Assembly (NCBI GenBank): GCA_963693105.1
Contig: OY843752.1
Span: forward strand, 1,577,222-1,641,221
DNA from: an uncultured candidatus Porisulfidus sp.
Lineage (GTDB): Bacteria > Pseudomonadota > Gammaproteobacteria > Poriferisulfidales > Oxydemutatoraceae
Reading direction: 5' to 3'
Length of the DNA stretch: 64,000 nucleotides
The notes below the pieces were generated by a model. That model made no database searches and had not been told where the DNA came from. It saw only the letters and a program-made list of their open reading frames with translations. Shown here piece by piece: positions 2,169 through 26,756 of the stretch; position 1 is the stretch's first letter; each line of letters starts with the position of its first letter. The position numbers were made by a program, and so were the translations under genes.

Positions 2169-2698
2169 CGCGCCCGTCCCTCCTCCAGCTCCGCCAGCAA
2201 GGGCAACAGCACTTCCTCGACGTCGTCGTGGTCCAGCGGACCGATGTGCTTGTAGCGTATGACGCCGGCGCCGTCTATGACGAAGGTTTCGGGCACGCCA
2301 TAGACCCCCCAGTCTATGCCGATGCGCCCGCTCTGGTCGAACACGCTGAACACATACGGATTGCCCAGCCGCTCCAGCCAGGCAACGGCGTCTTCGCGCC
2401 GGTCTTTGTAATTCATTCCGTAAATCGGCACGCGCCAGTCCCCGGCAAGCGCCAGCAGCACCGGGTGTTCCTGATGACAGGCGACGCACCAGCTGGCCCA
2501 GACATTGACCAGCGCCGGCCCCGGCAGTTGCTTCTCGCCGACGACGCGCCCGGGTCTGTGCACGGTGGCGGCGGTGAACGGCGGCATCGGCTTGCCGACC
2601 AGCGGCGACGGTACGCGCGACGGATCCAGGCGCAGCCCCGCCGCCAGCAGCGCGACCAGCAGCACGAACGCGGCGACAATCCAGATGTGGCGGCTCAT
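2165..2698 (-). CDS. ccmG: Thiol:disulfide interchange protein CcmG/DsbE
   Basis: 177 aa with a thioredoxin fold and the WCVAC motif. ATGA overlaps on both sides link it to ccmF and ccmH. Confidence 0.9.
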   Translation of the reverse strand: MSRHIWIVAAFVLLVALLAAGLRLDPSRVPSPLVGKPMPPFTAATVHRPGRVVGEKQLPGPALVNVWASWCVACHQEHPVLLALAGDWRVPIYGMNYKDRREDAVAWLERLGNPYVFSVFDQSGRIGIDWGVYGVPETFVIDGAGVIRYKHIGPLDHDDVEEVLLPLLAELEEGRAR

Positions 2699-4668: not shown

Positions 4669-5117
4669 TGCGCGGCGCCGGCCTGCGGCCTGGCGATGCC
4701 GACCGGGTCCTGGCCGAGGGATTCGGCGACACCGGGCGGCATGTAATTCTCGTCGTGTTTGGCGAGCACCGTATCGGCGGCGAACACGCCGTCGTCGCGC
4801 AGCCGTCCGGTGGCAACGGCGCCCTGGCCGTCGCCGAACAGGTCGGGCAGCAGGCCGTGATAAACGACGCGGGTGGTTGACTCGCTGTCAGACAGCTCGA
4901 AATGCACACGTTCGCCGCGCCGGATGCTGCCGGGCACGACCATGCCGCCCAGGTTGAAGGTCCTGTCAACCGGCGGCATTTCCCGGGCGACCTGGGTCGG
5001 CGTGTAAAAGTACAGCAGATTTTTCTCGAGCGAGTACAACACCAGTGCCGCGGCGACGGAGAAACCGGCCAGCAGGATGACGATGAAAGCAAGCCGCTGC
5101 TTGCGCCTGGGTGTCAT
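4665..5117 (-). CDS. ccmE: Cytochrome c-type biogenesis haem chaperone CcmE
   Basis: Protein MTPRRKQRLAFIVILLAGFSVAAALVLYSLEKNLLYFYTPTQV..., with the start at internal Met38 of the track ORF. About 150 aa with a single N-terminal TM helix, typical of CcmE. Confidence 0.88.
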   Translation of the reverse strand: MTPRRKQRLAFIVILLAGFSVAAALVLYSLEKNLLYFYTPTQVAREMPPVDRTFNLGGMVVPGSIRRGERVHFELSDSESTTRVVYHGLLPDLFGDGQGAVATGRLRDDGVFAADTVLAKHDENYMPPGVAESLGQDPVGIARPQAGAAQ

Positions 5118-5284
5118 TGGCCGCCCTCTTTTGCAGCGGCGCCGCGGCGCAACAGGCGGCGGTGGCGCATCAGCGGCAGGTAGAGATTGGCGGCGAGCAC
5201 CACCAGACCCAGCGCGTAGGAAGGCCACACGAACCAGGCGTAACCGCCCATCGAAAGCCAGTCGAGAAAGCCGGCGTCAGGCAC
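5114..5284 (-). CDS. ccmD: Haem exporter protein CcmD (small membrane protein)
   Basis: Hand translation gives (V/M)PDAGFLDWLSMGGYAWFVWPSYALGLVVLAANLYLPLMRHRRLLRRG..., which aligns with E. coli CcmD MTPAFASWNEFFAMGGYAFFVW. The stop TGA overlaps the ccmE ATG as ATGA. The GTG start overlaps the ccmC 3' end and is not in the ORF track (<60 aa). Confidence 0.5.
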   Translation of the reverse strand: MPDAGFLDWLSMGGYAWFVWPSYALGLVVLAANLYLPLMRHRRLLRRGAAAKEGGQ

Positions 5285-6014
5285 GAATCCCGGCCTCGCC
5301 CCTGAACCATTGCTGCTCGCGGCAGTGTTCGGCGATGGAACTGCGCAGCCGCGCCAGCAGCGCGGTGACGAAATACAGATTGAAGACGGCCGCCATGAAC
5401 AACAGCGGCGCCAACATGCTGATGTGCGCCGCCGGCTCGTCGAAACGGGTCACCGTCGGCCCCTGGTGCAAGGTGTTCCACCACAGAACCGAGTAATGTA
5501 TGACGGGAATATTGACGACGCCGACTATCGCCAGCACCGAGGTCGCCCTCGCGGCCTTGCGGCGGTCGGGAATCGCCGAGTACAACGCGATGACGCCGAG
5601 ATACAAAAACAGCAGAATCAACTCCGATGTCAGGCGCGCGTCCCACACCCAGAAAGCGCCCCACATCGGCTTGCCCCACAACATGCCGGTCAGCAGCGTC
5701 AGCGCCGTGAACGACGCGCCGATGGGCGCGCACTCGATGTGGATGAGTTCGGCGAGTTTGACCCGCCACACCAGCGCCACCGCACCCGCCAGCGCCATCA
5801 CCATATAAACGAACAGCGACATCCAGGCCGACGGCACGTGAATGAACATGATGCGGTAGGCCTCGCCCTGCTTGTAGTCGGTCGGCGCCAGGTACAGCCC
5901 CCAATACAGGCCCGCCGCGAGCAACACGACGGTGGCGGGCAGCAGCCACGGAAACAACCGTCCGCACAGGCGGTAGAAAGACGGCAGCGAGGCATAGCGT
6001 TTCGCGTCAAGCAT
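5277..6014 (-). CDS. ccmC: Haem exporter protein CcmC
   Basis: 245-aa membrane protein carrying the WGxxWxWD tryptophan-rich motif (GKPMWGAFWVWDARL). Confidence 0.92.
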   Translation of the reverse strand: MLDAKRYASLPSFYRLCGRLFPWLLPATVVLLAAGLYWGLYLAPTDYKQGEAYRIMFIHVPSAWMSLFVYMVMALAGAVALVWRVKLAELIHIECAPIGASFTALTLLTGMLWGKPMWGAFWVWDARLTSELILLFLYLGVIALYSAIPDRRKAARATSVLAIVGVVNIPVIHYSVLWWNTLHQGPTVTRFDEPAAHISMLAPLLFMAAVFNLYFVTALLARLRSSIAEHCREQQWFRGEAGIRA

Positions 6015-6015
6015 G

Positions 6016-6676
6016 TCAGTCGAGCATTACTCTGAGGGAGGCGCCAACGGCGAGCGGCGCCAGAAGCAATGTCACTATAAGTATCGCGCCTGAAATTGCA
6101 AGCGCCGCCTCCGCCGGCAGGCCGGCCGCGGCCAGGTCCATCGCGTTGGCGCCGAACACCAGCAACGGAACGTAAAACGGCAACACTAGCAACACCATCA
6201 ACATCTCGCCGCGGCGCAAACAGCCGGTCAGCGCCGCGCCGACCGCGCCGAGCGCGCTCAACACCGGCGTGCCCAGCGCCAGGCTGAAAACCACCACCGG
6301 CAAACTGTGCACGGGCATGCCGAGCAGGTAACCGTAGAAAGGCGCCAGCAGCATGAACGGCAGGCCGGTGATGCACCAGTGCGCGAAGATGCGCGCAAGC
6401 GCAAACGGATAAACGCCGTGCGGCGTAATCAGCCATTGTTCAAGCGAGCCGTTCTCGAAGTCGTCCTTGAACGCGCGTTCAAGCGACAGCAGTCCCGCCA
6501 GCAGCGCCGCGATCCAGATGATGCCGGGCGCGAGCCGTCGCAGCACCGCCGGGTCGGCGTCCACTCCCAGCGGAAACAGGCTGACGACGACGGTGAAAAA
6601 CGCGACCGGCATCAGCCAGTTGGAATGGATGTTCACGGCGGCGGACAAATCGCGGCGCACCAGCGATACAAATGCG

Positions 6677-6684
<8 letters not shown>
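6016..6684 (-). CDS. ccmB: Haem exporter permease CcmB
   Basis: Protein MFDAFVSLVRRDLSAAVNIHSNWLMPVAFFTVVVSLFPLG..., starting at internal Met92 of the track ORF. The N-terminal 91 aa of the track ORF are Arg/Cys-rich junk that overlaps ccmA. Confidence 0.85.
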
Positions 6685-7336
<652 letters not shown>

Positions 7337-13621: not shown

Positions 13622-14220
13622 AAAAAACCGCCGCTTCCCTGATGATTTGGGCGCTGCTGCTCGCGGCGCCGTGCGCATACGCGCAATCAAGCGATGAACT
13701 CTACCAGATCGAACTGCTCATCCTGAAACACGGCGACGGCGCGGCGGAGCAGTTGCGCAATGTCGTCAAGCCCGAACTGGTGCACCGGCTGAGGCAGCCG
13801 GCGCTGGACCTTACACAGGCCGCGCCCGGCGACCGGATTCTGCCGGTCACCGACCGCTCGCAATACCGACTGGCCCGACAGGCCGAAAAAATCGAGGCCG
13901 ACGGCTCGTTCAAAATCCTGCGCCACATCGCCTGGCGACAACCGGCCTTCAACCGCGAACAGGCGCGTTACATCAACCTCCCCGGAGAGCCGGCGGCGGG
14001 GCTGCTGAAAGGCATCGCCTGGCTCAGCCACGAGCAGTATTTTCAACTGCGCCTGGACTTTCAATACGACCCGGATTACGCCGCCGAACCGACCGTCGCG
14101 AAAAAACCGACAACGACGCTGATTCCGATTCACATGAAGAAAGTCCTGCTGCCCGGCGAACTCCACTACCTCGACCACCCCATCATCAGCGTCCTCGCAA
14201 AGATCACCGAGGTGAAGTGA
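13618..14220 (+). CDS. csiV: Secreted CsiV-family-like protein (periplasmic, signal peptide)
   Basis: Signal peptide MKKTAASLMIWALLLAAPCAYA followed by an ELYQIELLILKH motif. Its position directly downstream of mfd with an ATGA overlap matches the conserved mfd-csiV neighbourhood. The family call is from memory of the motif and is uncertain. Confidence 0.4.
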   Translation: MKKTAASLMIWALLLAAPCAYAQSSDELYQIELLILKHGDGAAEQLRNVVKPELVHRLRQPALDLTQAAPGDRILPVTDRSQYRLARQAEKIEADGSFKILRHIAWRQPAFNREQARYINLPGEPAAGLLKGIAWLSHEQYFQLRLDFQYDPDYAAEPTVAKKPTTTLIPIHMKKVLLPGELHYLDHPIISVLAKITEVK

Positions 14221-14225
14221 TGAAA

Positions 14226-17200
14226 TTATCCGCCGACACTTTCGCCCCGGTGTTGAATCATCTCGTTATAGGTGAGCTTGAACATGCTGTCCGAAAGCCA
14301 CTTCTTGAAAGACTCATTGTCGCTGAACTGTTTGTGTAGATCCGTATAATCTGGAAGCGCTTCGAGCATAATGTGGTTCAGAGCTTCGTTATGCTCAATG
14401 CGTGCATTTTGTTTGTCGGAGTTTTGGCATGCGTTGCGGAAAGCGGGGTTCGCTTTTATCTTTTCAGGTAGTTCTCTGATGAACTGCCGATCCCTATCAT
14501 CGCCACCAAACTGGTTGTTGAAATCCCGGATGATGCTGGACAATGGATCCATCTCAATCTCCGGCTTTCGCATATCACCACCGGTCGGTATCGGGTCAAT
14601 CTCGGCATCATCGTCTTGCAGTGCAATCTGCGTCTTGGCTTTCACCTCAGCCCGGTAACTGGCCATGTCTATGGCTTCCAGGATGCCTCTGGACAAATCT
14701 TCTTCTTTGGGGGCGGGCAACTTCGGGATTAAAAAATTGAGAAAGATGGTGCGCTTCTCCCACTCGGAATTACTGTATGGAAGCAACGCCGAAAGAAATT
14801 CGTAAGTGCGGGTAAATGCCTTGGCCTTGCCCTTGAAAGCAATCTGGCCGTCTTCATCCAGTTCGTCCAAATATACTTTGACGCATTGATCCAGAACAGG
14901 GTCAAGTTGGTCGCGCTCAACGCCGTCCAGATACTGCCGAACAAAGCTGTCTATTTGTTCCGGCGAATAAACCTGATAACCGTCAAGGTCTGCCTGAATA
15001 TCATGCAGTTTGTTGGGGTCGGTCTCGTCAGCCAGAATGGTGCCACGGTAGTAGGGATTAAACGCTTCCCGAATGCCGTCAACGTCATTCATAAAGTCCA
15101 GCACAAAAGTATCGTGCTTTTTCGGATAGGAACGGTTGAGGCGCGATAACGTTTGCACAGCCTTGATGCCTGACAATTTTTTGTCAACATACATCGTGTG
15201 CAGAAGCGGCTCATCGTAGCCGGTCTGAAACTTGTCGGCGCAGATGAGAAACCGGTACGGCTCTTCCTGAATCTTGTCCTCAATAAGCCTTGATGGGAAT
15301 TCATTGAGCAACGCCTCGCTGACCCTCGCGCCGTTGTAGTCGTGCTCGCCCGAGAAAGCCACAATAGCCTTATATTGGCTCTTGCGTTCAAGCAAATAGG
15401 CGCGGATGGCATTGTAGTATTCGATTGCGCGCTGAATGCCGCCAGTCACCACCATCGCGCGCGCCTGTTCGCCGATTTTTTCCTGGCCAATGACTTGCTC
15501 GTGGAAGTGGTCAACCATGATTTCGGCCTTGAGCCGAATCGCATGACTGTGACCTTCGACATAGCGGCGAAGCTTTTTTCTGGCTTTCTTTGCATCGAAC
15601 TCGGGATCCGCCTCAATGGTCTTGGCCAGTCTGTAGTAACTCTTTATCGGCGTGTAGTGCTGAAGCACATCCAGAATAAAGCCTTCCTGAATAGCCTGCT
15701 TCATTGTGTAGATGTGGAAAGAACGGTGTTTGGTCGTGCCGTCCGCTTGCGGGTTCGGGTTGCCGAATATCTCCAGCGTCTTGTTCTTCGGAGTGGCTGT
15801 AAAAGCAAAGTAACTGGCGTTGGATAGCAGCCTACGCGATTCCATCAGCCGGTTAATCTGGTCCTCGAAAGTTTCCCCTTCCTCTTCCCTGCCCGCCTCG
15901 GCGAGTGCCCGCGCCACAGACGCACCAGCCTTGCCGCCCTGACTGGAATGTGCCTCGTCAATGATGAGGGCGAAACACCGTTTTCTCTGTTCATTTCCAA
16001 TCTCGTTGAGGATATACGGGAATTTCTGCAACGTTGTGATGATGATCTTTTTGCCTTCTTCAATGAATTTCCGCAGGTCGCCCGAATCCTTAGCGTGTCC
16101 CACCGTTGCTCCGACCTGGGCAAATTGTTTAATAGTGTCTCGAATTTGCTTGTCGAGGATGCGTCGGTCGGTAATCACAATAATCGAGTCAAACACGGGC
16201 TTGTTGTTTTTCGCCAACCCGATTAACTGATGAGCCAGCCAGGCGATGGAGTTGGATTTTCCACTCCCCGCCGAGTGCTGAATCAAGTAGCGCTTACCCA
16301 CACCCTCTGCCCCGGCGTCGGCCAGAAGTTGGCGCACAACATCAAGCTGATGATAGCGAGGCCATATCTGCGCTTTCTTCTTGCGTCCGGTCTTTTCGTC
16401 CTTCGACTCCACCACTTGGGCGTAGTTCTCAAGGATGTTGGTAAGACTCGTTCGAGTCAGCACTTCGCGCCACAAGTAATCAGTCTTGATGCCGTTGGGA
16501 TTCGGCGGGTTGCCGGCGCCGCCTTCCCAACCTTTGTTGAAAGGCAGAAACCATGATGCCTTGCCCTTCAAGTGCGTACAAAAACGCACCTCTTGTTCAT
16601 CCACCGCAAAGTGCGCCACGCAACGGCCAAACTCAAAGAGTTTCTCGCTCGGGTCGCGGTCTGTCTTGTACTGCCGGACCGCATCATCCACCGTCTGCCT
16701 GGTGAGGCTGTTCTTCAATTCAAAAGTGGCAACCGGCAGACCGTTTATAAAGAGCCCCATGTCCAACGCAAGTTTCGGATTGGTGCGGCTGTAACCCAAC
16801 TGTCGCGTGATTGAGAAGCGGTTTGCCTCGAACAATGTCTGGGCTTTTTCGTTCCCCGGCGATGGTGTGCCGTAGAAAAGGTTGAGGTTATGGGCGCCGT
16901 GTTTGATTCCACGGCGCAGCACGTCAATGGTGCCGCGCTTGCTAATCCCACTTCGTAGTCGTGCCAGAAACTTTCGCCGTGCAGGGCAATCATTATCTAA
17001 CCCCAGCGATTCGGCCACCTCCGGTTGCGTAGCGACCAGAAAGGCTGAAAGTTGCGCCAAATCCACGCAGTACTCACGGTCGTAGTCATGCCGGTTGCCG
17101 CAAATCCAGCCCACTCCGCCATAACTAACCGGCAGTTCGGACACCGAACCCTCCTTAGGCGGGTCACAGGGCTGGCCGGCCAAAACCATGCAGATATGGC

Positions 17201-17243
17201 GTTCAAGACCACGTTCAGAGGTGTCAGTGACGCTACTGGACAT
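14226..17243 (-). CDS. hsdR: Type I restriction enzyme R subunit HsdR
   Basis: 1005 aa with a helicase core (DEAH box LIIDEAHSSQ, GSGKS Walker A) and an N-terminal nuclease region, in Type I R-M context. Local GC is clearly lower than the flanks. Confidence 0.9.
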   Translation of the reverse strand: MSSSVTDTSERGLERHICMVLAGQPCDPPKEGSVSELPVSYGGVGWICGNRHDYDREYCVDLAQLSAFLVATQPEVAESLGLDNDCPARRKFLARLRSGISKRGTIDVLRRGIKHGAHNLNLFYGTPSPGNEKAQTLFEANRFSITRQLGYSRTNPKLALDMGLFINGLPVATFELKNSLTRQTVDDAVRQYKTDRDPSEKLFEFGRCVAHFAVDEQEVRFCTHLKGKASWFLPFNKGWEGGAGNPPNPNGIKTDYLWREVLTRTSLTNILENYAQVVESKDEKTGRKKKAQIWPRYHQLDVVRQLLADAGAEGVGKRYLIQHSAGSGKSNSIAWLAHQLIGLAKNNKPVFDSIIVITDRRILDKQIRDTIKQFAQVGATVGHAKDSGDLRKFIEEGKKIIITTLQKFPYILNEIGNEQRKRCFALIIDEAHSSQGGKAGASVARALAEAGREEEGETFEDQINRLMESRRLLSNASYFAFTATPKNKTLEIFGNPNPQADGTTKHRSFHIYTMKQAIQEGFILDVLQHYTPIKSYYRLAKTIEADPEFDAKKARKKLRRYVEGHSHAIRLKAEIMVDHFHEQVIGQEKIGEQARAMVVTGGIQRAIEYYNAIRAYLLERKSQYKAIVAFSGEHDYNGARVSEALLNEFPSRLIEDKIQEEPYRFLICADKFQTGYDEPLLHTMYVDKKLSGIKAVQTLSRLNRSYPKKHDTFVLDFMNDVDGIREAFNPYYRGTILADETDPNKLHDIQADLDGYQVYSPEQIDSFVRQYLDGVERDQLDPVLDQCVKVYLDELDEDGQIAFKGKAKAFTRTYEFLSALLPYSNSEWEKRTIFLNFLIPKLPAPKEEDLSRGILEAIDMASYRAEVKAKTQIALQDDDAEIDPIPTGGDMRKPEIEMDPLSSIIRDFNNQFGGDDRDRQFIRELPEKIKANPAFRNACQNSDKQNARIEHNEALNHIMLEALPDYTDLHKQFSDNESFKKWLSDSMFKLTYNEMIQHRGESVGG

Positions 17244-17368
17244 AACTCAGGCACTCTTTGTCAAATGACAGTCAGTTAAGAAAATCTGCATATTCCAAAG
17301 GACTGGAGATTTAGTCATTAAAATCGAGCACCTTCATCAATTACCCGTCAACATGCCGAGCCCGATTA

Positions 17369-18349
17369 TTACTGCCGGGTGATTTTTCGGCCAATGTAAA
17401 GGACTTTAAGCCGGACTTGTCCAAGTGGAACCGGCCATTCAAAATGAATTCGAAAAGTTTCCCGACTAATCTTCCCATGCCAAGGGCAGAACAATGATTC
17501 GGAAGGGTCTGAAGGATCCTTGAAGGTCAATTTCTGTTTAAATTTTCTCTTGTTGCTTTCAGATTCATCACTAAACCATGCTTTGCGGCCTTGGCTATGT
17601 TTCTTCCATAGCTCATTAGCGGCATCCGTCATTCCCCCGTCAGAAACACGGCGGTCCGACATGATTTCTTGCAAGACGTTCAAACGACTTTCGATTCTGT
17701 TTGAGATAATTCCAGAAAATGTTTCTCGGGAAAGTGCGGTCTTCAAAATATCATCCGAAATTTCCAGATGATTGAAGCGCTCTTGACAGAATTCTATTAA
17801 TTCTTCCCAACTCTGTGGGGCACGCCTTTCATTCAGGCAAGATTCGAGTTTCTGTACATCCCAAGTGTTGGGGATACTGATTTTACCGAACGGGTCTTCG
17901 GGGAGGCCATGCAAGACCGTTAAAGGGGTTCGCTCGAAATTGATCCGACCACCGGTGAAACTAAAGACTCCGGACGGGTCGTGCACACGCACTCTTCTGG
18001 CTGCCTCCCCAAGGCCGCTATATGTAACGTCCTCACCCTCAAATTCGAAATAGTTATCTGGTTCGTCCTGCTTATCATTTTCTACGAATGAGCTAGCTTT
18101 AGAAACCCATCCAAAGAACAATCTTTTCATATCGGGCTTGCTTTGCTCCACAGCCTCGGAAGCATTCATCCAGGCTGTAACCGGTCGATGTTTGAGTTCA
18201 TCGGTACAGAAAAGCTGATACGTTTTCCCTTTCAATTTCCAACGAATCGAAGCTACTTTCAGGAAATCATTGAGAAACGCTTTTCCCGTCTCAAACTGTC
18301 CTTGAAGTGATAACTCGTTGATGTACCACTTCACGCGGATTGGTCCCAC
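17369..18349 (-). CDS. Uncharacterised 326-aa protein, third gene of the DUF262/ATPase cassette
   Basis: No recognisable family from reading. Its start overlaps the upstream ATPase gene by 19 nt. Low GC. Contains a C-terminal R-x5-H (RETFRIH) that could be a HEPN-like motif; this is weak. Confidence 0.5.
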   Translation of the reverse strand: MGPIRVKWYINELSLQGQFETGKAFLNDFLKVASIRWKLKGKTYQLFCTDELKHRPVTAWMNASEAVEQSKPDMKRLFFGWVSKASSFVENDKQDEPDNYFEFEGEDVTYSGLGEAARRVRVHDPSGVFSFTGGRINFERTPLTVLHGLPEDPFGKISIPNTWDVQKLESCLNERRAPQSWEELIEFCQERFNHLEISDDILKTALSRETFSGIISNRIESRLNVLQEIMSDRRVSDGGMTDAANELWKKHSQGRKAWFSDESESNKRKFKQKLTFKDPSDPSESLFCPWHGKISRETFRIHFEWPVPLGQVRLKVLYIGRKITRQ

Positions 18350-19560
18350 CCTATCAGCGTTGCAAGATCTAATTCACTCTGATCGAAAAAGCCCTCGGGC
18401 CAAATGTCAAAAGCGCCCTCTGCATCAATAGCTGGCGAAATCACACCATGGCCAGCCTTAGAATCCACCCCGGAAAAGAAGTGAACCGCCACATCCGAAT
18501 GTGAGAGAACTCTCTTTTTCACGGCCAAACGAATCCCGTTCAGGACATGATCGCTGTGACTTTCAATCAATATCTGAACACCAGTGGTCGCAATACGAGC
18601 GAGTATCTCCCCCATGCGGGACTGTGCGCGTGGATGGAGATGAGCTTCCGGGCTCTCGATAATCAAAACTTGGTCTTCCCGAGCCAAAAGAATTGCCGCG
18701 AGAATCGGAAACACATACGTAAGCCCATATCCCACGTTGGCCGGGAGGCACCAGTCATTCTCTGTCCCAATGCCAAACAACAGCCGTATGAGAGAAGTCT
18801 TTTCTACTTTATTTGCCGTAACTCGCGTACCGGGGAAAAGATCATTTAAATAAGCATCCATCTGCCGGCGCAGACTTCCTGCATCCTCATTGGGATGCCA
18901 CCGGAATGAGTCAACTTCCTCATCTGCTGCCCATTCGTACCACCACGGCGCATATTGTCCTTCGCAACCGACATCTGCATAAATAATGTTTGCATTGTCT
19001 GGAGACGGATATACATCGGATATTTCGCCGCGCTCTGAATTCAAGAATATAATATTCCTGAGTGCATGAATTAAATCGCTTGAGGAAGCGCCAGTATCTG
19101 GATTGTCCCACATTTTCCCGGCCCACTTTTGCGGTTCCGTATTCCGCCGCTGATATGTCACCCTCTCAATATGGAACAAGTCTTTTCTAGGTTCAGATAA
19201 ACGCATTTGAGGGTCCACAGGACTGAAACTCCATGAAGCATGCTCATTCCCGGTAGCAACTGAAATTCCAATCCGGCGCTCTTCCGCTTGGCTTGACAAC
19301 ACATCGCTCGGTCGCCCAAGTCGAATAATTGGCCCATTAGGCGGCAAATATGCCGAGTCAGAATCCAGACTGAGGCCTTGTGTCAATAGAAGGAGAGAAT
19401 GTAATGCTGTGGATTTCCCTGCCGAGTTGAAGCCGGTGAACAGCGTAAGCGGCGCCAATGCAAGACGCAGAGCCGAGAAACACTTTAGATTGGAAAATTC
19501 AAGCGAGCGCAGTGCCATGGCTTCAGTTCCTGATTCCGAATGCTTTTGTGGCAAGTTCAA
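18331..19560 (-). CDS. AAA_21/ABC-type ATPase with C-terminal DUF3696-like region (OLD/AbiEii-like ATPase architecture)
   Basis: Walker A motif LFTGFNSAGKST, Walker B-like VLIIESPEAHLHP, then ILIESHSDHVLNGIRL (DUF3696-like). Its start overlaps the DUF262 gene by 38 nt, or is adjacent if Met15 is the true start. Confidence 0.7.
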   Translation of the reverse strand: MNLPQKHSESGTEAMALRSLEFSNLKCFSALRLALAPLTLFTGFNSAGKSTALHSLLLLTQGLSLDSDSAYLPPNGPIIRLGRPSDVLSSQAEERRIGISVATGNEHASWSFSPVDPQMRLSEPRKDLFHIERVTYQRRNTEPQKWAGKMWDNPDTGASSSDLIHALRNIIFLNSERGEISDVYPSPDNANIIYADVGCEGQYAPWWYEWAADEEVDSFRWHPNEDAGSLRRQMDAYLNDLFPGTRVTANKVEKTSLIRLLFGIGTENDWCLPANVGYGLTYVFPILAAILLAREDQVLIIESPEAHLHPRAQSRMGEILARIATTGVQILIESHSDHVLNGIRLAVKKRVLSHSDVAVHFFSGVDSKAGHGVISPAIDAEGAFDIWPEGFFDQSELDLATLIGWDQSA

Positions 19561-20656
19561 ATCTGGTTCTTACAGACTTGGTATTATTGGTAAAGTAGCT
19601 GATAGCACTGTTGAACTGCTCATCATCAATTAGATTGACCATCGCTTCGCGGATTTTATGTCCCAATTCTGATTCAAGGGAGATTTCTTCCGGGAACTCT
19701 GCCAACAACACTGTGCAAACATCGAAAAGAGAAATATTGAGCTTACCACGTTTAATGCCGGGCCCTTCAAAAACAAGTGATTTGCGGAATGCATGTCTCT
19801 TAAAGAGTTGTCGATTAGATTGTAATGACCGATTAAATTTCTTCATGAGGTCATTCAAACACGCCTCATTATCGGGGTCATTCATATAACGCAGAGCTTT
19901 AGCCAGAAATTCGTCCATGTCTCCGCGGTATTCATCTACCCCGAGAATGCTAAACGCGCAGAAGCGATTCACCGCCTCCCGGTCTCTCATGATTTCAGGT
20001 TTCAGTGCATATCCTGTTGCCGCATGGAACAGTTCGCTTTCCACTGCTTTTTTGAGCCAACGCGTTGCAGGACCATTGTATACCGCATTGCGCATTTGCT
20101 GGCGACTCAAAGCGATACCGCTGTTTACGCGCTCAAAAATATCGAGTCGAGCACGTTCCGGCGCATTGGCATCAAGTATATACATAATAAGCTGTGTATC
20201 GAGAATTCGCTCTTGTAATTTCAGAGGCAATTGACTGAACTTCTTCCCTTCAATGGAGCTTTCTCGATTACCCCCGTCATTTAAACCGGTACCCCGTATC
20301 TTGAATTCGTCATTTACATAGTTCAGAAAAGTAGTGATTCTCTGTAGCCCGTCCACAATGATAATTTCCCCTCCCAGCCCTTCCGCAACATAAAAAACCG
20401 GAAGCGGGATGCGCATAATGCAACTTTCGATAAGCTTTGACTGTTTATCATGCGGCCATACGAAATCGCGCTGGAAATCCGGGTCGAGTATCCAGCGGTT
20501 GTTCTTGACTCGACCAAGAACTTCTGAAACCGACCTTGTTTCTTGACGAATGAAGAGAGAATCTAGAGGGTATCCCGTACTGCCATCGCCAGCTGTTTTG
20601 TCGTGGCCCTCAATCTCCTCTTTGGGTGGCTTTTGTTCGGTCGCTATTTCTGCCAT
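19523..20656 (-). CDS. DUF262 domain protein (ParB/Srx-like nuclease fold; DndB/GmrS-N-like)
   Basis: FQRDFVW followed by IIIVDGLQRITTF, matching the DUF262 signature (classically DGQQR). 377 aa with no DUF1524/HNH half. There is a promoter-like AT-rich stretch upstream at 20657-20803. Confidence 0.7.
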   Translation of the reverse strand: MAEIATEQKPPKEEIEGHDKTAGDGSTGYPLDSLFIRQETRSVSEVLGRVKNNRWILDPDFQRDFVWPHDKQSKLIESCIMRIPLPVFYVAEGLGGEIIIVDGLQRITTFLNYVNDEFKIRGTGLNDGGNRESSIEGKKFSQLPLKLQERILDTQLIMYILDANAPERARLDIFERVNSGIALSRQQMRNAVYNGPATRWLKKAVESELFHAATGYALKPEIMRDREAVNRFCAFSILGVDEYRGDMDEFLAKALRYMNDPDNEACLNDLMKKFNRSLQSNRQLFKRHAFRKSLVFEGPGIKRGKLNISLFDVCTVLLAEFPEEISLESELGHKIREAMVNLIDDEQFNSAISYFTNNTKSVRTRFELATKAFGIRN

Positions 20657-20803
20657 TTCTTCACCACGTGCCCTTGATTACTGCGAGTACAAAAAACATG
20701 GTTTCTTATGCCTTGAATTGATTGGTTCGTAACCGTCTGTAATAGTGCGGATACCCAATGTGATTAATATAACAAACTTTTCGGGCTGACAAGGGGAAAA
20801 TGG

Positions 20804-22192
20804 TCAACCTTCCAGTCTCTCCATCCTTTCAGTTTCTTCGCCTATGTCGCTCAAAGCGTTTCTCTCGCCTATCGGCTCCGAATCACCAAATTCGTCAGGC
20901 AGACTGTTTGCCACCCCACGCACGTCAACCTTGCCGGTGACTACATCGGCAATCAGGCGGGTGCGGTATTCTTGCAGGAGTTCAATCTCGCGGCGGGCGC
21001 GTGCAATGGTAGTATCAATGTCGGCGGTGGTGCGGTCAAGGTATTCGACAATAGCGGTTTGTTCAAGCAGAGGAGGAATAGGTAATCTTGAGCGGCTTAA
21101 CTTTTCATAGTCGATGTTCTGGCCTTGCCTGATTCCAGTCACAAAGAACCTAAGATTTTCGATGTATGGCATCGATTTGAACAAGTGCGCGAGATACCTG
21201 TGGTTTTCTGTATTTTTTACAACGAGGATTGTGTATGCAGGGCTGATAATCCCTTGCTCATGCGCATATTCAATACCTCCTTGAAACGATCTAAGACTGA
21301 TAACAAAGTCACCAACACACACCAACTTCAATAAGTGAAGATCTTTCAGTGCCAGAACTGTCCTGCTTTCATATTGCTCTTTGCGAACAACTCCCTTCGT
21401 TTGGGTCGCTGCAAGTAAAGGTTCATTAGGGTACCCTTTTTCGCTTCGCTCATTAAATAGAATTTTTGTTCGCCGAACATCCCAATGTTCCGGCACCTCC
21501 CCCAGCCATTTAATGCCAGAGTCTTTTAGGGGAACATTGGGGTCGAGGCCGCGGGTGATGGCGCGGGTGATGATGGCCTGTTTTTGTTCTTTCAGTAATT
21601 CAACCAGCTTCTGCTTCGCTCGAACAAACCGCCACACCCGTTGCTCCACATAATCCAGATAGTGAACAATCGCGACTTGTTCCGAGAGAGGTGGAAAGCA
21701 TGAGTGGATGGTCTTAAAGTGTTCAGGACGCAGGCTCCACATATCTGATGCAATGCCATAGGACCAGCGCTCGGCTTCTTTTGCAAATGACGGAATTCGA
21801 AAAAGCTGATGGAAGTAATTAGGATTGCTACAATTATGTGGCCGCTGCACTACATACGCGGGACTAATGATGCCTCTGTAATTTGAAACACCAATCGCCC
21901 CCTGCCATGCACGCATTTTGTTGTATGCTATATCTCCGGGCTGTACAACCTTGTAATTTGACTTATCCAAATTTGAGCTATCCTTCTTAGATGTAGTCTC
22001 AAGAAGCGCTGATTGGCGAATCACCCCTTTTTTTATGGTAACGGACAGCATTTGCTCGTCAGGATATCCGCGGTCTTTAACCTCATCAAACATAGCCCGG
22101 TTTGGCAGCACTTCCCAATGCTCCGGCACATCTCCCAGCCACTCGACACCAGAGTCCTTCATTGCGGGATAAGGTTTGAGGTTGGAAATCAT
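20804..22192 (-). CDS. hsdS: Type I restriction-modification specificity subunit HsdS
   Basis: 462 aa with two target-recognition domains and repeated conserved elements (DSGVEWLGDVPEHWEV... / DSGIKWLGEVPEHWDV...). Confidence 0.88.
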   Translation of the reverse strand: MISNLKPYPAMKDSGVEWLGDVPEHWEVLPNRAMFDEVKDRGYPDEQMLSVTIKKGVIRQSALLETTSKKDSSNLDKSNYKVVQPGDIAYNKMRAWQGAIGVSNYRGIISPAYVVQRPHNCSNPNYFHQLFRIPSFAKEAERWSYGIASDMWSLRPEHFKTIHSCFPPLSEQVAIVHYLDYVEQRVWRFVRAKQKLVELLKEQKQAIITRAITRGLDPNVPLKDSGIKWLGEVPEHWDVRRTKILFNERSEKGYPNEPLLAATQTKGVVRKEQYESRTVLALKDLHLLKLVCVGDFVISLRSFQGGIEYAHEQGIISPAYTILVVKNTENHRYLAHLFKSMPYIENLRFFVTGIRQGQNIDYEKLSRSRLPIPPLLEQTAIVEYLDRTTADIDTTIARARREIELLQEYRTRLIADVVTGKVDVRGVANSLPDEFGDSEPIGERNALSDIGEETERMERLEG

Positions 22193-22225
22193 TACAGTAC
22201 TTTCCCTCCCCTATTCATAGTGCCA

Positions 22226-23453
22226 CTAATTGGTTTCCCCAACGATTTCGCCCAACAACCCTTCCGTCTCCTTCTCCAATGCCAGAATATCAGTGCGAAT
22301 TTCCCCCAGTGTGCGCATCGGCTGAGGTTTATAGAAATAGCGGGTGAAACTGATTTCGTAGCCAATCTTGACGCTGTTCTCGACATACCAGGCATCGGAA
22401 ACATGCGGCAACACTTCACGCTTCAGGAATGCCTCAATGCCGCCTTTTTCCGGTAGCGGTATCTGTTCGGTGTCGCGCAGGTCGGTGTCCGGTTCGTATT
22501 CCACTACGGCGGGCTTGCCGTTGATGGCGGTCTCGAAAAGACCTCGCAATGGGTCGGGGACTGTCCCTTTCTTGTGGATTTTCTTGATGATGGGCGGAGC
22601 CTCCTCGCTTCGCTTACCATTTTCTTTCATGTCCTTGATTTCTTTTGCTTTGTAAGCGCGATTCGGGTCGGCGCCTTCAATGCGAAGCGGGCGTTCAACG
22701 GTGATTTTCCAGTAGCCGAAAGCCTCGTTGTCAAAAATCTTGCTCTGCTCTGACTCCTCAAACGCAAGAAAGGTATCGCAAATGCGCTTGATGTCATTCT
22801 CTCCGAGTTCGCAGTTCTTCTTGCCCAGATTCTTGCGTAGCGACTGATACCACCCGGTGGCGTCAATGAGTTGCACCTTGCCCTTGCGGTGTTCAGGCTT
22901 GCGGTTGCTGAGTACCCAGATATAAGTGGCGATGCCAGTGTTATAAAACAGGTTCAACGGCAACGCGATAATAGCCTCCAGCCAATCGTTTTCAATAACC
23001 CATCGGCGGATATTGCTCTCGCCCTGCCCGGCGTCACCCGTGAATAGTGAACTCCCGTTGTGTACTTCAGCAATGCGGCTGCCGAGTTTCGTGCGCCGCT
23101 TCATTTTGCTCAGCATGTTCGCCAGGAAAAGCATCTGGCCGTCGCTGGAGCGGGTTACCAGAGAGTAGTCGGGAACATCAGCGTGACTAATCGAAAAACG
23201 CGTGTCGCTTATTTCGCCTTTCCCGCCCATGCGGTCCAAATCGCTTTTCCAACTCTTGCCATAGGGGGGATTGGAGAGCATGAAATCAAATTCGGTGGAC
23301 GGGAAGGCATCGTTAGAAAGAGTTGAATATTCAGCACCACCGACGATGTTATCCGCCGCTTCGCCTTCACCTTTGAGTAGCATATCCGCCTTACAGATGG
23401 CGTAGGTCTCGGCGTTAATCTCCTGGCCATAGAGGTGTGTCTTAACTTCTTTA
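22226..23453 (-). pseudogene. hsdM: hsdM C-terminal fragment (Type I DNA methyltransferase, catalytic NPPYG region), separated from its 5' part by an IS
   Basis: The fragment carries the NPPYG motif. Hand translation just above the track ORF start gives KEVKTHLYGQEINAETYAICKADM. Joining this to the N-terminal fragment across the IS, minus one TSD copy, restores one open frame. Confidence 0.85.
23446..23453. repeat. Target-site duplication CTTCTTTA (left copy)
   Basis: An identical 8-mer directly flanks both ends of the IS. 8 bp is the usual TSD length for IS1595-family elements. Confidence 0.75.
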
Positions 23454-23585
23454 GGGAATTATATACCAAAATGCACCAAAAACGGGGGAAAGCCTTATAG
23501 GGTAAAGGTTTTTAGTGATTGACATTTGCGCTGAAATATGCAATAATAAACGGGTTGTTAATCACTGATATAGGAGTATATCAAA

Positions 23586-24509
23586 ATGAAAAAGAGAGTA
23601 GCCAAAACCCTATCCACATTTGACTTTATGGCCATGTTTCCGACAGAGAAGAGAGCGCGTAAGTATGTAGAGCGTTTGCTTTGGAAGGGCAAGCCAGTAT
23701 GTCCGCATTGCAAGCATGGCAAGGTAATGACACTGAAAAGAGAAGGTCATTACAAGTGCCATAGTTGCCGCAAGGTATTTACTGTTCGGGTAGGTACCAT
23801 CATGGAGAGTAGCAAGGTGCCGTTTCGCAAGTGGTTGTATGCGATGTATCTGATTGCTACTTCCCGCAAAAGCATTAGCAGTTTGCAGTTGAGTAAAGAG
23901 ATTGGCGTTACTCAAAAGACTGCATGGTTTCTTGGTCATAGAATCCGTGAAGCCTTTAAGAGCGGTGATGTATTGCTTTCAGATATTGTGGAAGTGGATG
24001 AAACCTACATCGGCGGCAAGGAACGCAACAAGCATAGCAACAAGAAGTTGAGGGCTGGTCGTGGAGCAGTGGGTAAGGCGGCTGTAATGGGTATGCGAGA
24101 GCGCACTGGTAAAGTAAAGGCCATGTCGGTAGAGAGTGCGGACAAGCCTACGCTACAAGGTGCAATTCATAAGCACATTGAAAAGGGTTCGGTTGTTTAT
24201 ACCGACGACCACAGGGCTTACTTGGGGTTGGAAGGATACGACCATAGCAAGGTCAATCATTCAGCAAAGGAATATGTAAATGGAATGGCACATACTAACG
24301 GCATTGAGTCGGTATGGGCTGTGCTCAAGCGTGGATATGTAGGCACCTTCCACAATTTCAGCGAGAAGCATTTACAGCGATATGTAGATGAGTTTGCTTT
24401 CAGGTTGAATGAGGGTAACTGTGAAGTGGATACGGAAGACAGGATTGTCGCGCTTTGTAATGGAATGCAAGGCAAGCGTATCAAGTACAAAGATTTGACA
24501 GGGAAGTAA
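23586..24509 (+). CDS. IS1595-family (ISXO2-like) DDE transposase
   Basis: 307 aa with an N-terminal zinc finger (CPHCKHG...CHSCRK), a DDE core and a typical IS1595 C-terminus (YVDEFAFRLNEG). Confidence 0.85.
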   Translation: MKKRVAKTLSTFDFMAMFPTEKRARKYVERLLWKGKPVCPHCKHGKVMTLKREGHYKCHSCRKVFTVRVGTIMESSKVPFRKWLYAMYLIATSRKSISSLQLSKEIGVTQKTAWFLGHRIREAFKSGDVLLSDIVEVDETYIGGKERNKHSNKKLRAGRGAVGKAAVMGMRERTGKVKAMSVESADKPTLQGAIHKHIEKGSVVYTDDHRAYLGLEGYDHSKVNHSAKEYVNGMAHTNGIESVWAVLKRGYVGTFHNFSEKHLQRYVDEFAFRLNEGNCEVDTEDRIVALCNGMQGKRIKYKDLTGK

Positions 24510-24605
24510 CAGGACGGGGCAATGGTGCAGTTTGTGATTAACAACAATACTCTCGGCTGTGCTGTTGCCCTTTATTGTGTGCTGGAGTTAATCAAGTGAA
24601 GGCTG

Positions 24606-24614
24606 CCCCCCCCC
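24606..24614 (+). repeat. C9 homopolymeric tract upstream of the MTase-HNH gene
   Basis: GGCTG-CCCCCCCCC-AAATGG lies 23 nt upstream of the TTG start, or about 59 nt upstream of the first in-frame ATG at 24673. It is a candidate slipped-strand phase-variation tract. Confidence 0.5.
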
Positions 24615-24636
24615 AAATGGTATATGCCAGAACACT

Positions 24637-25842
24637 TTGTACACGGGTGATAACTTGTACATCTTGAACGGCATGAACAGTGAGTCGGTGGACTTGATTT
24701 ACCTTGACCCGCCGTTTAATTCCAAGCGGTTTTATTCGGCACCTGTAGGGAGTAAATCAGCAGGGGCAAGTTTCAAGGATATGTGGACTTGGCAGGATGT
24801 AGATGAAGCCTGCCTTGAGCGGCTGGTGAGTAACTATCCGTACCTTGTTCAGTTTATAGAGGCAGTGGAAGGGATACACGGCAAACCGATGATGTCATAC
24901 ATAACCTACATGACGCAAAGGGTAATAGAATTGCACAGAGTGTTAAAGAGTACTGGAAGTTTGTATCTACATTGCGACCCTACCGCGAGTCACTATCTGA
25001 AAGTGCTACTTGATAGAGTGTTCGGAAAGGGGAACTTTCTGAATGAGATTATCTGGCATTATTACAACGGTTCAAATAGAGCAAAAACAAACTTCGGTAG
25101 AAAGCACGATGTTATATTCTTCTACGCCAAGAAGCGCGATAAGCATTTGTATAACTGGAATGATATGCGAGAGCCGTATGTTAAAGGCAGTTCGTACGCC
25201 AAAGGAACGAATTACGGCAAGAAGGGTTTTTTACAGGGAGATGAACGCGGGAAACTTATGCACGATGTATGGCGTATTCCCTCAATCAATAACATGGCGA
25301 AAGAGCGCACCGGATACCCTACACAGAAACCGCTTGCATTACTCAATCGCATTATCAAAGCCAGTAGTAAAAAGGGGGATGTAGTGTTTGACCCGTTTTG
25401 CGGATGTGCTACGACAATGGTAGCGGCACAACAGTTACAGCGCGGGTGGGTAGGAATAGACATTGAAAGCAAAGCGGCAGAGTTGGTGGTGGATAGATTG
25501 TCAGATGAAGCAGGATTATTCGATGAGTTTATCCATAGAAAGGATGTGCCAGTACGAACGGATGTAAAGATTGAGTCGGAAAAGAGTAAGAGTGTGAAAG
25601 ACAGATTGTTCAATGAGCAAAAAGGGGCATGTAACGGCTGTCGTGATGAGTTTGAGATACGACACTTTGAGGTTGACCATATTATTCCGAGGTCAAAAGG
25701 TGGTGGGAATTACTACGAGAATTATCAGTTGCTTTGTGGAAGTTGCAATCGTACAAAAGGCAATCGGCCTATGGAATACCTACACAAGAAAATAACGGCG
25801 CGTGAGAAACACATGCAGCATAGAATTACTTTCGGAGCATGA
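24637..25842 (+). CDS. Beta-class DNA amino-methyltransferase (N6-adenine or N4-cytosine) fused to a C-terminal HNH endonuclease domain; IS passenger gene
   Basis: Motif IV (LIYLDPPFNS) lies near the N-terminus and motif I (VFDPFCGCATTMVAA) is distal, which is the beta-class order. The C-terminus has HNH signatures (HFEVDHIIPRSKGG...NYQLLCGSCNRTKGN). The track start is TTG; an in-frame ATG at 24673 (MNSESVDLIYLDPPF) is an alternative. Confidence 0.8.
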   Translation: MYTGDNLYILNGMNSESVDLIYLDPPFNSKRFYSAPVGSKSAGASFKDMWTWQDVDEACLERLVSNYPYLVQFIEAVEGIHGKPMMSYITYMTQRVIELHRVLKSTGSLYLHCDPTASHYLKVLLDRVFGKGNFLNEIIWHYYNGSNRAKTNFGRKHDVIFFYAKKRDKHLYNWNDMREPYVKGSSYAKGTNYGKKGFLQGDERGKLMHDVWRIPSINNMAKERTGYPTQKPLALLNRIIKASSKKGDVVFDPFCGCATTMVAAQQLQRGWVGIDIESKAAELVVDRLSDEAGLFDEFIHRKDVPVRTDVKIESEKSKSVKDRLFNEQKGACNGCRDEFEIRHFEVDHIIPRSKGGGNYYENYQLLCGSCNRTKGNRPMEYLHKKITAREKHMQHRITFGA

Positions 25843-25961
25843 ACAAGTCAAAGCCAACAACGCGGAAGGTCAAGAGGGAAAGAAGGCGACCGCCTGCATG
25901 GTTTGATGATGTCGTAAGGAAGGCTTTGTTGTCTGGTGAAGGCAAGAAGAATGCTAAATAG

Positions 25962-25987
25962 TTGGTGCATTTTTGTATATAATTCCC
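25962..25987. repeat. Right inverted repeat of the IS1595-family element
   Basis: TTGGTGCATTTTTGTATATAATTCCC is the reverse complement of the left inverted repeat at 23454-23479, with one mismatch. Confidence 0.75.
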
Positions 25988-25995
25988 CTTCTTTA
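25988..25995. repeat. Target-site duplication CTTCTTTA (right copy)
   Basis: Identical to the 8-mer at 23446-23453. Confidence 0.75.
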
Positions 25996-26756
25996 CCTTG
26001 CTCCTTGGCTAGTTCCCGCAATGTTTCTTCGGCGACCGTCAGCATCCCGCCGGTACCGCAGGCGCCGTCGTAGAGCAGGTAGGTGCTGGACTTGATCTTG
26101 TCGGCAACGGGAAGGAAGATGAGTTTTGCCATCAACTTGACCGCATCGCGCGGCGTCCAGTGTTCACCGGCTTCTTCGTTATTCTTTTCGTTGAAACGGC
26201 GCACCAATTCCTCAAAGATTGTGCCCATGCCGTGGTTGTCCAGACCGGGATGCTTGATCGATCCGTCTTTATTCTTTATCGGGTAGGGGCTGAGATTGAT
26301 ATCGGGTGATGTGAGTTTTTCAATCAATGTGCCCAACGCATCAGCTTTCGAGAGGTCCGGAATCTGGTTGCGAAACTTGAAGTTGTCGAGAATATCCTGC
26401 ACGTTGGGCGAAAAGCCGTCGAGATATGCTTCAAAGTCAGCGCGAAGTTGCTGTTGATTGGCACAGGCTTTCAGGTCCCGTAGGGTGAATTTGGAAACAT
26501 TGTAGAACGCATGCCCGGCGGCCATACGTAAAGTCCCGTCCTGTTCGACCACTTTGGCTTTATCCAGTCGGCTCATCGCATCCAAGACGGCTTGCTTGCT
26601 GTTCTCCAGTACCGCGTCCAGGCGACGAAGAAGGGTCATGGGAAGAATCACATCGCGGTATTTCCCTCGCACGTACAAATCGCGTAGCACATCGTCTGCG
26701 ATGCCCCAGATAAAAGCGACAATTCTTCCGTGTTGGTCGTTGTTCATGTCGGTCAA
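25988..26756 (-). pseudogene. hsdM: hsdM N-terminal fragment (HsdM_N domain plus AdoMet-binding motif I)
   Basis: HsdM N-terminal domain plus motif I (LYDGACGTGGML). The authentic sequence ends ...LRELAKEQGKE at the IS junction. The last 45 aa of the track ORF (ELYTKMHQ...) are read-through into the IS inverted repeat. Confidence 0.85.

Follow-up and report, generated by a model that had tools for sequence, protein, structure and literature searches.

An IS1595-family element inserted in hsdM carries a methyltransferase-HNH fusion gene, a candidate mobile restriction-modification-like module

Here we describe an insertion sequence (IS) of the IS1595 family from an uncultured candidatus Porisulfidus sp. 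and its passenger gene, which encodes a DNA methyltransferase fused to an HNH nuclease domain. The element lies in a 64,000-nucleotide stretch of contig OY843752.1, which was analyzed as a whole and is called the window; all coordinates below are positions within the window. The complete element extends from 23454 to 25987 (2,534 bp), and between its ends are a transposase gene, an open reading frame (ORF) of 401 amino acids (aa) and a basic ORF of 40 aa. The features of the element and of the interrupted gene around it are as follows.

22226..23453, minus strand: C-terminal part of hsdM, the interrupted Type I gene (PF02384), which rejoins the N-terminal part after removal of the IS.
23446..23453, unstranded: left copy of the 8-bp target-site duplication, CTTCTTTA, identical to 25988-25995.
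23454..23479, plus strand: left terminal inverted repeat, GGGAATTATATACCAAAATGCACCAA, 26 nt, complementary to 25962-25987 at 25 of 26 positions (96%); its GGGAATTATAT terminus is also present in related elements.
23586..24509, plus strand: IS1595-family DDE transposase, 307 aa, with an N-terminal zinc ribbon (PF12762, 2.6e-45; PF12760, 1.1e-11; NF033547, NCBIfam transpos_IS1595, 8.5e-64; all above the curated cut-offs).
24637..25842, plus strand: passenger gene for the 401-aa methyltransferase-HNH fusion, TTG start, from the ORF list and Pfam; the public annotation begins at M13 (389 aa).
25962..25987, minus strand: right terminal inverted repeat, 26 nt, pairing with 23454-23479 at 25 of 26 positions.
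25988..25995, unstranded: right copy of the target-site duplication, CTTCTTTA, a perfect match to the left copy.
25988..26756, minus strand: N-terminal part of the interrupted hsdM (PF12161 HsdM_N and PF02384).

The insertion into hsdM is genuine, since in-silico removal of 23454-25995 (the IS and one repeat copy) left both hsdM fragments joined in one open frame, which runs for 669 codons from stop to stop. When the 64-kb window was searched for the terminal 13-mer GGGAATTATATAC with up to two mismatches, only these two ends were found, while about 0.2 chance matches were expected. Both hsdR and hsdS have long open frames that encode the expected domains, and on this ground the insertion was probably recent. 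HsdM is required for Type I restriction, and the insertion should thus remove restriction and modification alike, without lethality.

A preliminary description of this DNA, made from the sequence alone, had stated that the IS knocked out the host Type I methyltransferase. The disruption of hsdM is real, but a rivalry between the two systems is not needed to account for it. The target-site duplications of 13 elements (the window element, L002, L027, L031, L037, L039, L058, L068, L088, L094, L103, L109 and L115) are AT-rich, with 25 of 104 bases G or C, though many of the hosts are high-GC. This suggests that the IS clade prefers AT-rich targets, and such a preference, together with the low GC content of the Type I island, would explain the choice of the hsdM site without rivalry between systems. 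The island itself is 12.5 kb long (14200-26750), has about 47-52% GC, compared with about 64% for the genome, and is bounded by mfd/CsiV and gltX. It contains hsdR, an uncharacterized 326-aa ORF, an ATPase (AAA_15/AAA_21/DUF3696) adjoining a GmrSD_N (DUF262) protein, hsdS and the interrupted hsdM.

The assignment to the IS1595 family follows from the ISXO2-like DDE transposase with its N-terminal zinc ribbon, from the terminal inverted repeats and from the 8-bp target-site duplication. Residues D138, D207, E241, K248 and E269 are invariant among 12 related transposases, and the window transposase has R273 four residues past E269. There is presumably a group of ISfinder, ISNwi1 (the "ISNwi1+" subgroup), which we take to be defined by ends of the type ggnnatTAT, by a DDEK+ER4 signature and by passenger-carrying members of 1.75-4.75 kb. 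The ends of the window element, GGGAATTAT, and its residues D138/D207/E241/K248 with E269-x3-R273 are consistent with that presumed definition. As the preliminary description had claimed, the passenger gene is located inside the inverted repeats, past the transposase gene and ahead of the right repeat. The domains of the passenger protein are listed below.

24688..25488, plus strand: beta-class N6/N4 DNA methyltransferase domain, residues 18-284 (PF01555, 1.2e-51, 176.2 bits against a cut-off of 26.7).
25057..25272, plus strand: hypervariable block, residues 141-212, between the conserved halves of the methyltransferase, presumed target-recognition domain.
25630..25767, plus strand: HNH nuclease domain, CxxC...DH...N...CxxCN, residues 332-377 (PF01844, 3.1e-14, 53.3 bits against a cut-off of 21.4; PF14279 also matches).

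The reading of this ORF as a beta-class methyltransferase fused to an HNH domain was thus borne out. DPPF (residues 24-27, 24706-24717) precedes FDPFCGCATT (residues 251-260, 25387-25416), and motif IV followed by motif I is the order of the beta-class amino-methyltransferases. The solved structures nearest to the methyltransferase domain are M.RsrI, M.MboIIA and CcrM, and the HNH domain aligns end to end with that of a Cas9. The preliminary description had allowed that the HNH motifs could prove degenerate on alignment. We found them intact: 25 homologues all have the same eight zinc and catalytic residues (C332, C335, D347, H348, N362, C367, C370 and N371).

Residues 141-212 differ sharply from the rest of the protein. 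Among 87 family members, the mean pairwise identity of this block was 0.27, compared with 0.62 for the methyltransferase core and 0.54 for the HNH domain, and its length varied from 53 to 147 aa. Judging from this variation, the block is presumed to be the target-recognition domain. The linker between the two domains is conserved, with R287, L288, G293, F295, F298, P305, R307 and D309 invariant in the 25 aligned members, which argues for functional coupling of the methyltransferase and HNH domains. An AlphaFold model of the fusion built from 25 sequences had a mean pLDDT (predicted local distance difference test) of 66.6 with the HNH domain poorly modeled, and it was not used.

We then analyzed the genomic neighborhoods of the fusion. 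A genome scan with one genome per species gave at least 590 fusion loci; 80 of the more than 590 were retained, all of them covering the HNH part, and the counts of neighbors and contexts refer to these 80. The IS1595 transposase was the sole recurrent neighbor, found within about 1 kb at 16 of the 80 loci. Seven of these 16 loci (L002, L027, L031, L037, L039, L058 and L068), from different bacterial lineages, are further complete elements of 2.4-3.3 kb that enclose the fusion between GGGAATTATAT ends. Their inverted repeats are about 25 nt long and start with GGG(A/G)ATTAT. Each has its own 8-bp target-site duplication, six of them perfect and one matching at seven of eight positions, so that with the window element there are seven perfect duplications and one of 7/8. 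The window element is therefore a transporter IS, in that its cargo lies within the inverted repeats and the same cargo is enclosed in seven other elements with independent target-site duplications. The preliminary description had considered the arrangement unusual. It is not isolated, given a very large fusion family and at least seven other independently inserted elements with the same cargo. The window element is a real, moderately unusual mobile module resembling a restriction-modification (R-M) system, and related elements of many bacteria bear this cargo too.

At one further locus, L086, IS1595-type ends enclose the fusion, and both a transposase and a target-site duplication are missing. 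The left end there matches the left repeat of the window element at 23 of 26 positions (our own count), and the right end keeps the same 13-nt terminus; from these ends, L086 looks like a non-autonomous cassette. The L086 region (2480-5381, on a contig of 197,681 nt) contains two fusion paralogues in tandem, the second one inside the IS ends, and three further paralogues (P0016, P0054 and P0058) are assigned to a contig of equal length.

A scan centered on the transposase instead covered 80 metagenome loci with 38-57% identity, and the fusion was absent from all 80. The fusion is hence not a standard component of this IS, which the preliminary description had raised as a possibility. Elements with the same ends carried the following.

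L089, 1,026 bp: nothing beyond the transposase; target-site duplication matching at only 5 of 8 positions.
L094, 3,140 bp (3893-7032): C5 methylase, an ORF without Pfam match, and Vsr; target-site duplication TTTCAAAA, perfect.
L115, 2,624 bp (3879-6502): MT-A70 methylase and BglII-family endonuclease; target-site duplication AAAAATTT, perfect.
L106, from about 3924, right end not found: N6_N4 methylase and MvaI/BcnI-family endonuclease.
L113, 2,236 bp: KilA-N protein; target-site duplication matching at only 6 of 8 positions.

Because elements with the same ends carry varied cargo or none, the transposase alone appears sufficient to move elements of this clade. The cargo slot, as judged from the predicted genes, often holds R-M genes, and by analogy the window fusion gene would fill the slot held by a methylase and an endonuclease in the sister elements. 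The roles proposed in the preliminary description, a mobile self-contained R-M module or an addiction module, gain support from this likeness to the ordinary Type II methylase and endonuclease pairs and are still the best reading. Among annotated plasmids, the relative nearest to the transposase has 46.5% identity (L081, locus 2986-5988, on the Entomospira plasmid NZ_CP118183.1). It is followed by an AAA-family ATPase gene, which may be another kind of passenger.

The same elements bear on the idea that the fusion is an accessory of transposition, whether by cutting the second strand, like TnsA of Tn7, or by timing transposase expression or end usage through methylation. In favor of this idea, the association with the IS clade recurs, the HNH domain is intact, and the cargo is co-oriented with the transposase gene. 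The two genes are also probably co-transcribed, because a consensus scan of the region found no promoter-like site between them of the type present upstream of the transposase gene (described below). However, elements with the same ends do without this cargo, as does L089 with its 1,026 bp, or carry unrelated cargo, such as the Type II R-M pairs and the KilA-N protein. Furthermore, none of the 80 transposase-centered loci has the fusion and 64 of the 80 fusion loci have no transposase. The gene order among the IS-linked loci also varies, in that the transposase gene precedes the fusion gene on one strand, follows it in convergent orientation or diverges from it. We consider an accessory role highly improbable.

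The fusion family is large and widespread. All of the 120 best matches in a database of 5.8 billion proteins were full-length fusions of about 370-480 aa with 53-71% identity, and a search with the linker-plus-HNH tail returned 677 clusters (50% identity) at E <= 1e-10. Many of the 80 loci came from sponge-associated lineages (among them Poribacteria, Chloroflexota and Poriferihabitaceae) and one from a Nitrosopumilus archaeon. An enrichment of R-M genes and transposases has been reported for the sponge-symbiont habitat (PMC5099237), and the fusion class may account for part of it. Several features of the family resemble those of R-M systems, namely a hypervariable block of variable length, several paralogues on one contig and frequency in sponge symbionts. 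The 64 loci without a transposase are solo genes. No conserved partner gene was found beside the solo copies, so no partner gene is needed, and, L086 excepted, no IS ends were found beside them.

These solo genes raise the alternative that the fusion is a selfish gene of the homing type. The HNH domain would cut genomes or alleles without the gene, the methylase would protect the carrier, and the break would promote copying or retention; the IS would be one of several routes of spread, and phage defense would be incidental. Free-standing HNH homing endonucleases of phages act in this fashion. Each of the three closest relatives among the matches listed (about 70% identity) is a lone gene that lacks IS ends and has housekeeping genes on both sides. 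By similarity, IS-borne copies are mixed with solo ones, and an IS-borne copy often has a solo gene as its nearest relative. The family spans phyla at 40-70% identity and reaches an archaeon. On the other hand, neither flanking repeats nor an empty-site comparison was found for the solo copies, and a variable block with several paralogues per genome is equally expected of ordinary R-M systems. The homing explanation also overlaps the addiction version of the reading that we prefer, and the two are hard to tell apart by sequence. As an explanation distinct from an R-M-like module, we think homing unlikely.

The matches in viruses concern another alternative, in which the fusion is an orphan methylase that protects against host restriction, with the HNH domain serving for nicking in replication, repair or packaging rather than for restriction of unmethylated DNA. 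The methyltransferase half matches the phage methyltransferase family phrog_67, and 77 of the 80 best loci on viral contigs (L167-L246) have methylase-only genes with 37-47% identity to it. Yet the complete fusion is rare on viral contigs, occurring at 3 of these 80 loci, and one of the three, L169, again adjoins an IS1595 transposase. The strict conservation of the linker and the HNH catalytic residues together with the methylase, and the presence of complete methylase and endonuclease pairs in the cargo slot of sister elements, also argue against an orphan methylase, which we regard as quite improbable. On plasmids, there was no DNA match to the element and no full-length fusion among 745 plasmid hits.

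Taken as a whole, we lean toward the reading that the window element is an autonomous transporter IS of the IS1595 family whose cargo is a self-contained, R-M-like defense or addiction enzyme that is not needed for transposition, and we hold this joint reading to be somewhat probable. The DDE transposase would move the whole 2.5-kb unit by means of the GGGAATTATAT-type inverted repeats, and insertion would duplicate 8 bp of an AT-rich target, here hsdM within the low-GC Type I island. The methyltransferase, with its variable recognition block, would methylate a specific site, presumably at N6 of adenine as the DPPF motif suggests. The HNH domain, tethered by the conserved linker, would nick or cut DNA without that mark, and the cargo would benefit element and host as a defense or addiction module. 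The cargo is probably transcribed from the transposase promoter, and the poly-C tract upstream of the gene may switch its translation.

Several observations weigh against this reading. A single HNH domain cuts one strand; double-strand restriction would therefore need dimerization, and the enzyme might only nick. The single-chain enzymes MmeI and Eco57I, with 900-1,100 aa, begin with a PD-(D/E)XK nuclease and have a methyltransferase of the gamma class, a build different from that of the fusion. Comparison with structure databases gave no solved structure combining both domains of the fusion, and the PADLOC models matched the methyltransferase part alone, the best 25 of 101 being Type II, Type III or orphan methyltransferase models. 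A literature search found no member of the fusion family with assayed activity. The identities of transposases and cargo proteins do not co-vary (14 pairs; Spearman 0.085, p 0.42), so that co-divergence, considered as a sign of a stable unit, was not found and the association of the fusion with IS1595, as seen in the sequences, appears repeated but loose. Finally, TTG at 24637 is the only in-frame start of the cargo ORF in the window element, it has no obvious ribosome-binding site, and the upstream starts are out of frame at the present length of the poly-C tract. The cargo gene may thus be silent in the window copy. The same literature search found, within the library that it covered, no paper that describes a methyltransferase-HNH fusion.

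The poly-C tract follows the transposase stop and precedes the cargo start.

24606..24614, plus strand: homopolymer tract of nine C (C9), candidate slipped-strand on/off switch.

A tract of C10 or C7 would bring GTG 24596 or TTG 24575 into the cargo frame (414-422 aa), while C9 and C8 do not. Among the 14 IS-borne copies examined, three have a homopolymer tract; in one of these, L045, it is a C14 tract within the ORF, and in another, L002, it is a G8 tract that is in frame with a GTG upstream. From these positions, slipped-strand changes in the C-tract may switch cargo expression. A frameshift at codon 2 was also considered, by which a one-base insertion would follow an ancestral ATG (ATG 24624, an extra C, then CAG AAC ACT TTG). 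It was rejected, because the IS-borne relative at L002 (P0101) is annotated from a TTG at the equivalent aligned position, with AAAGGA in front, and because the C-tract accounts for the upstream starts.

The last alternative is that the window copy is switched off or decaying and is a passive passenger without current function, whatever the rest of the family does. In its favor, besides the single TTG start and the out-of-frame GTG and TTG upstream, the window fusion protein and transposase are both singletons in a collection of 15 billion proteins, and so give no sign of recent spread. Against decay, the frame is open over 401 codons with all family-invariant residues kept, the L002 relative is annotated from the same TTG position, and the 25/26 match of the inverted repeats with the perfect target-site duplication argues for recent insertion. 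We regard a silent window copy as doubtful, yet as a possibility to be reckoned with.

Two further features of the element are listed here.

23519..23547, plus strand: promoter-like site TTGACA-17-AATAAT (11 of 12 positions, with TG) upstream of the transposase gene, identified by consensus match alone; the regional total of such sites does not exceed that of shuffled sequence.
25839..25961, plus strand: 40-aa basic ORF, whose start overlaps the cargo stop (ATGA) and which ends one base short of the right inverted repeat.

The sequence GTGATT(A/G)ACA or its reverse complement occurs three times, at 23515-23524, 23556-23565 and 24534-24543. One copy lies over the -35 of the promoter-like site, one just before the transposase start and one just past the transposase stop. 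These copies could be an operator, while a perfect inverted pair of 12 nt in 3 kb is by itself not beyond chance.

The 40-aa ORF matched no Pfam or NCBIfam family. Small ORFs with a weakly similar motif are present in the equivalent position at L002 (7281-7460), L027 (7245-7433), L031, L039 (5678-5989, minus strand), L057, L068 (7258-7434) and L086 (3770-3928). The weak common motif is a basic or GRP stretch, then xPE(E/N)hA(R/K)AhF/L, then KKP. At L039, the orientation of the small ORF is fixed relative to the IS end and not to the cargo. A profile built from nine positional relatives recovered mainly its own training sequences, and the conservation is weak.

Beyond the window, the beta-methyltransferase-HNH fusions might form an uncharacterized class of compact (about 400 aa) single-chain R-M or nicking enzymes. 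The variable block would set specificity, and the class would have entered a repeated partnership with one IS1595 clade, giving autonomous elements, transposase-less cassettes and phase-variable copies. This broader proposal is tentative, and we stop short of calling it probable. Should the fusion prove to be an active methylation-sensitive nuclease, it would rank among the smallest self-contained R-M units, and the hundreds of natural variants with differing recognition blocks might serve as nicking or restriction enzymes. The element would also show how an R-M unit can travel, packaged with one transposase in 2.5 kb and crossing phyla. Insertion sequences would then spread defense genes besides disrupting them, and here the incoming element has disabled a resident Type I system. 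Without such activity of the fusion, the element would be just another passenger-carrying IS.

Among known systems, the HNH domains of Cas9 and IscB, which cut one strand, are the best structural and sequence relatives of residues 320-380 and have the CxxC...DH...N...CxxCN pattern in common with them. Unlike these proteins, the fusion has no RuvC domain or sign of an RNA guide, and targeting would come from the methyltransferase.

Phasevarions depend on phase-variable DNA methyltransferases with simple repeats in or before the gene. The window element and its relatives resemble them in having a homopolymer at the 5' end of the gene whose length would set the opening of the long frame (C9 here, C14 at L045 and G8 at L002). 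They differ in that the tract is limited to three of the 14 IS-borne copies and in that a start codon is here also present downstream of the tract.

The Type IIG/IIC single-chain enzymes likewise combine nuclease and methyltransferase with a variable recognition module in one polypeptide that needs no partner gene. The fusion shares this organization and departs from the canonical MmeI/Eco57I-like build, being 401 aa long and beta-class with a C-terminal HNH domain. By analogy it may act alike, but it stands outside that lineage.

Passenger-carrying members of the IS1595 family were introduced by Siguier, Gagnevin and Chandler in 2009, as cited in PMC3129680 and PMC2853133, and the term "transporter IS" is defined in PMC9330008. 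The window element agrees with them in its one DDE transposase with a zinc ribbon, its short inverted repeats, its 8-bp target-site duplication and the presence of genes other than those for transposition inside. Its cargo is a methyltransferase-HNH fusion, for which the literature search found no paper describing it as IS cargo.

Furuta, Abe and Kobayashi (2010; PMC2853133) cite the 2009 work among reports of IS-flanked R-M and solitary methylase genes. They described R-M units inside imperfect inverted repeats, inserted with an 8-bp duplication, and suggested that such units are mobilized in trans by a transposase; one example, from Neisseria gonorrhoeae, has 26-bp repeats and holds a fused Type IIG R-M gene. 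The window element is like these units in having R-M-type genes in inverted repeats with an 8-bp target-site duplication, and the L086 cassette resembles them but for the missing duplication. Unlike the units of Furuta et al., which lack a transposase, the window element is autonomous and carries a beta-methylase-HNH fusion.

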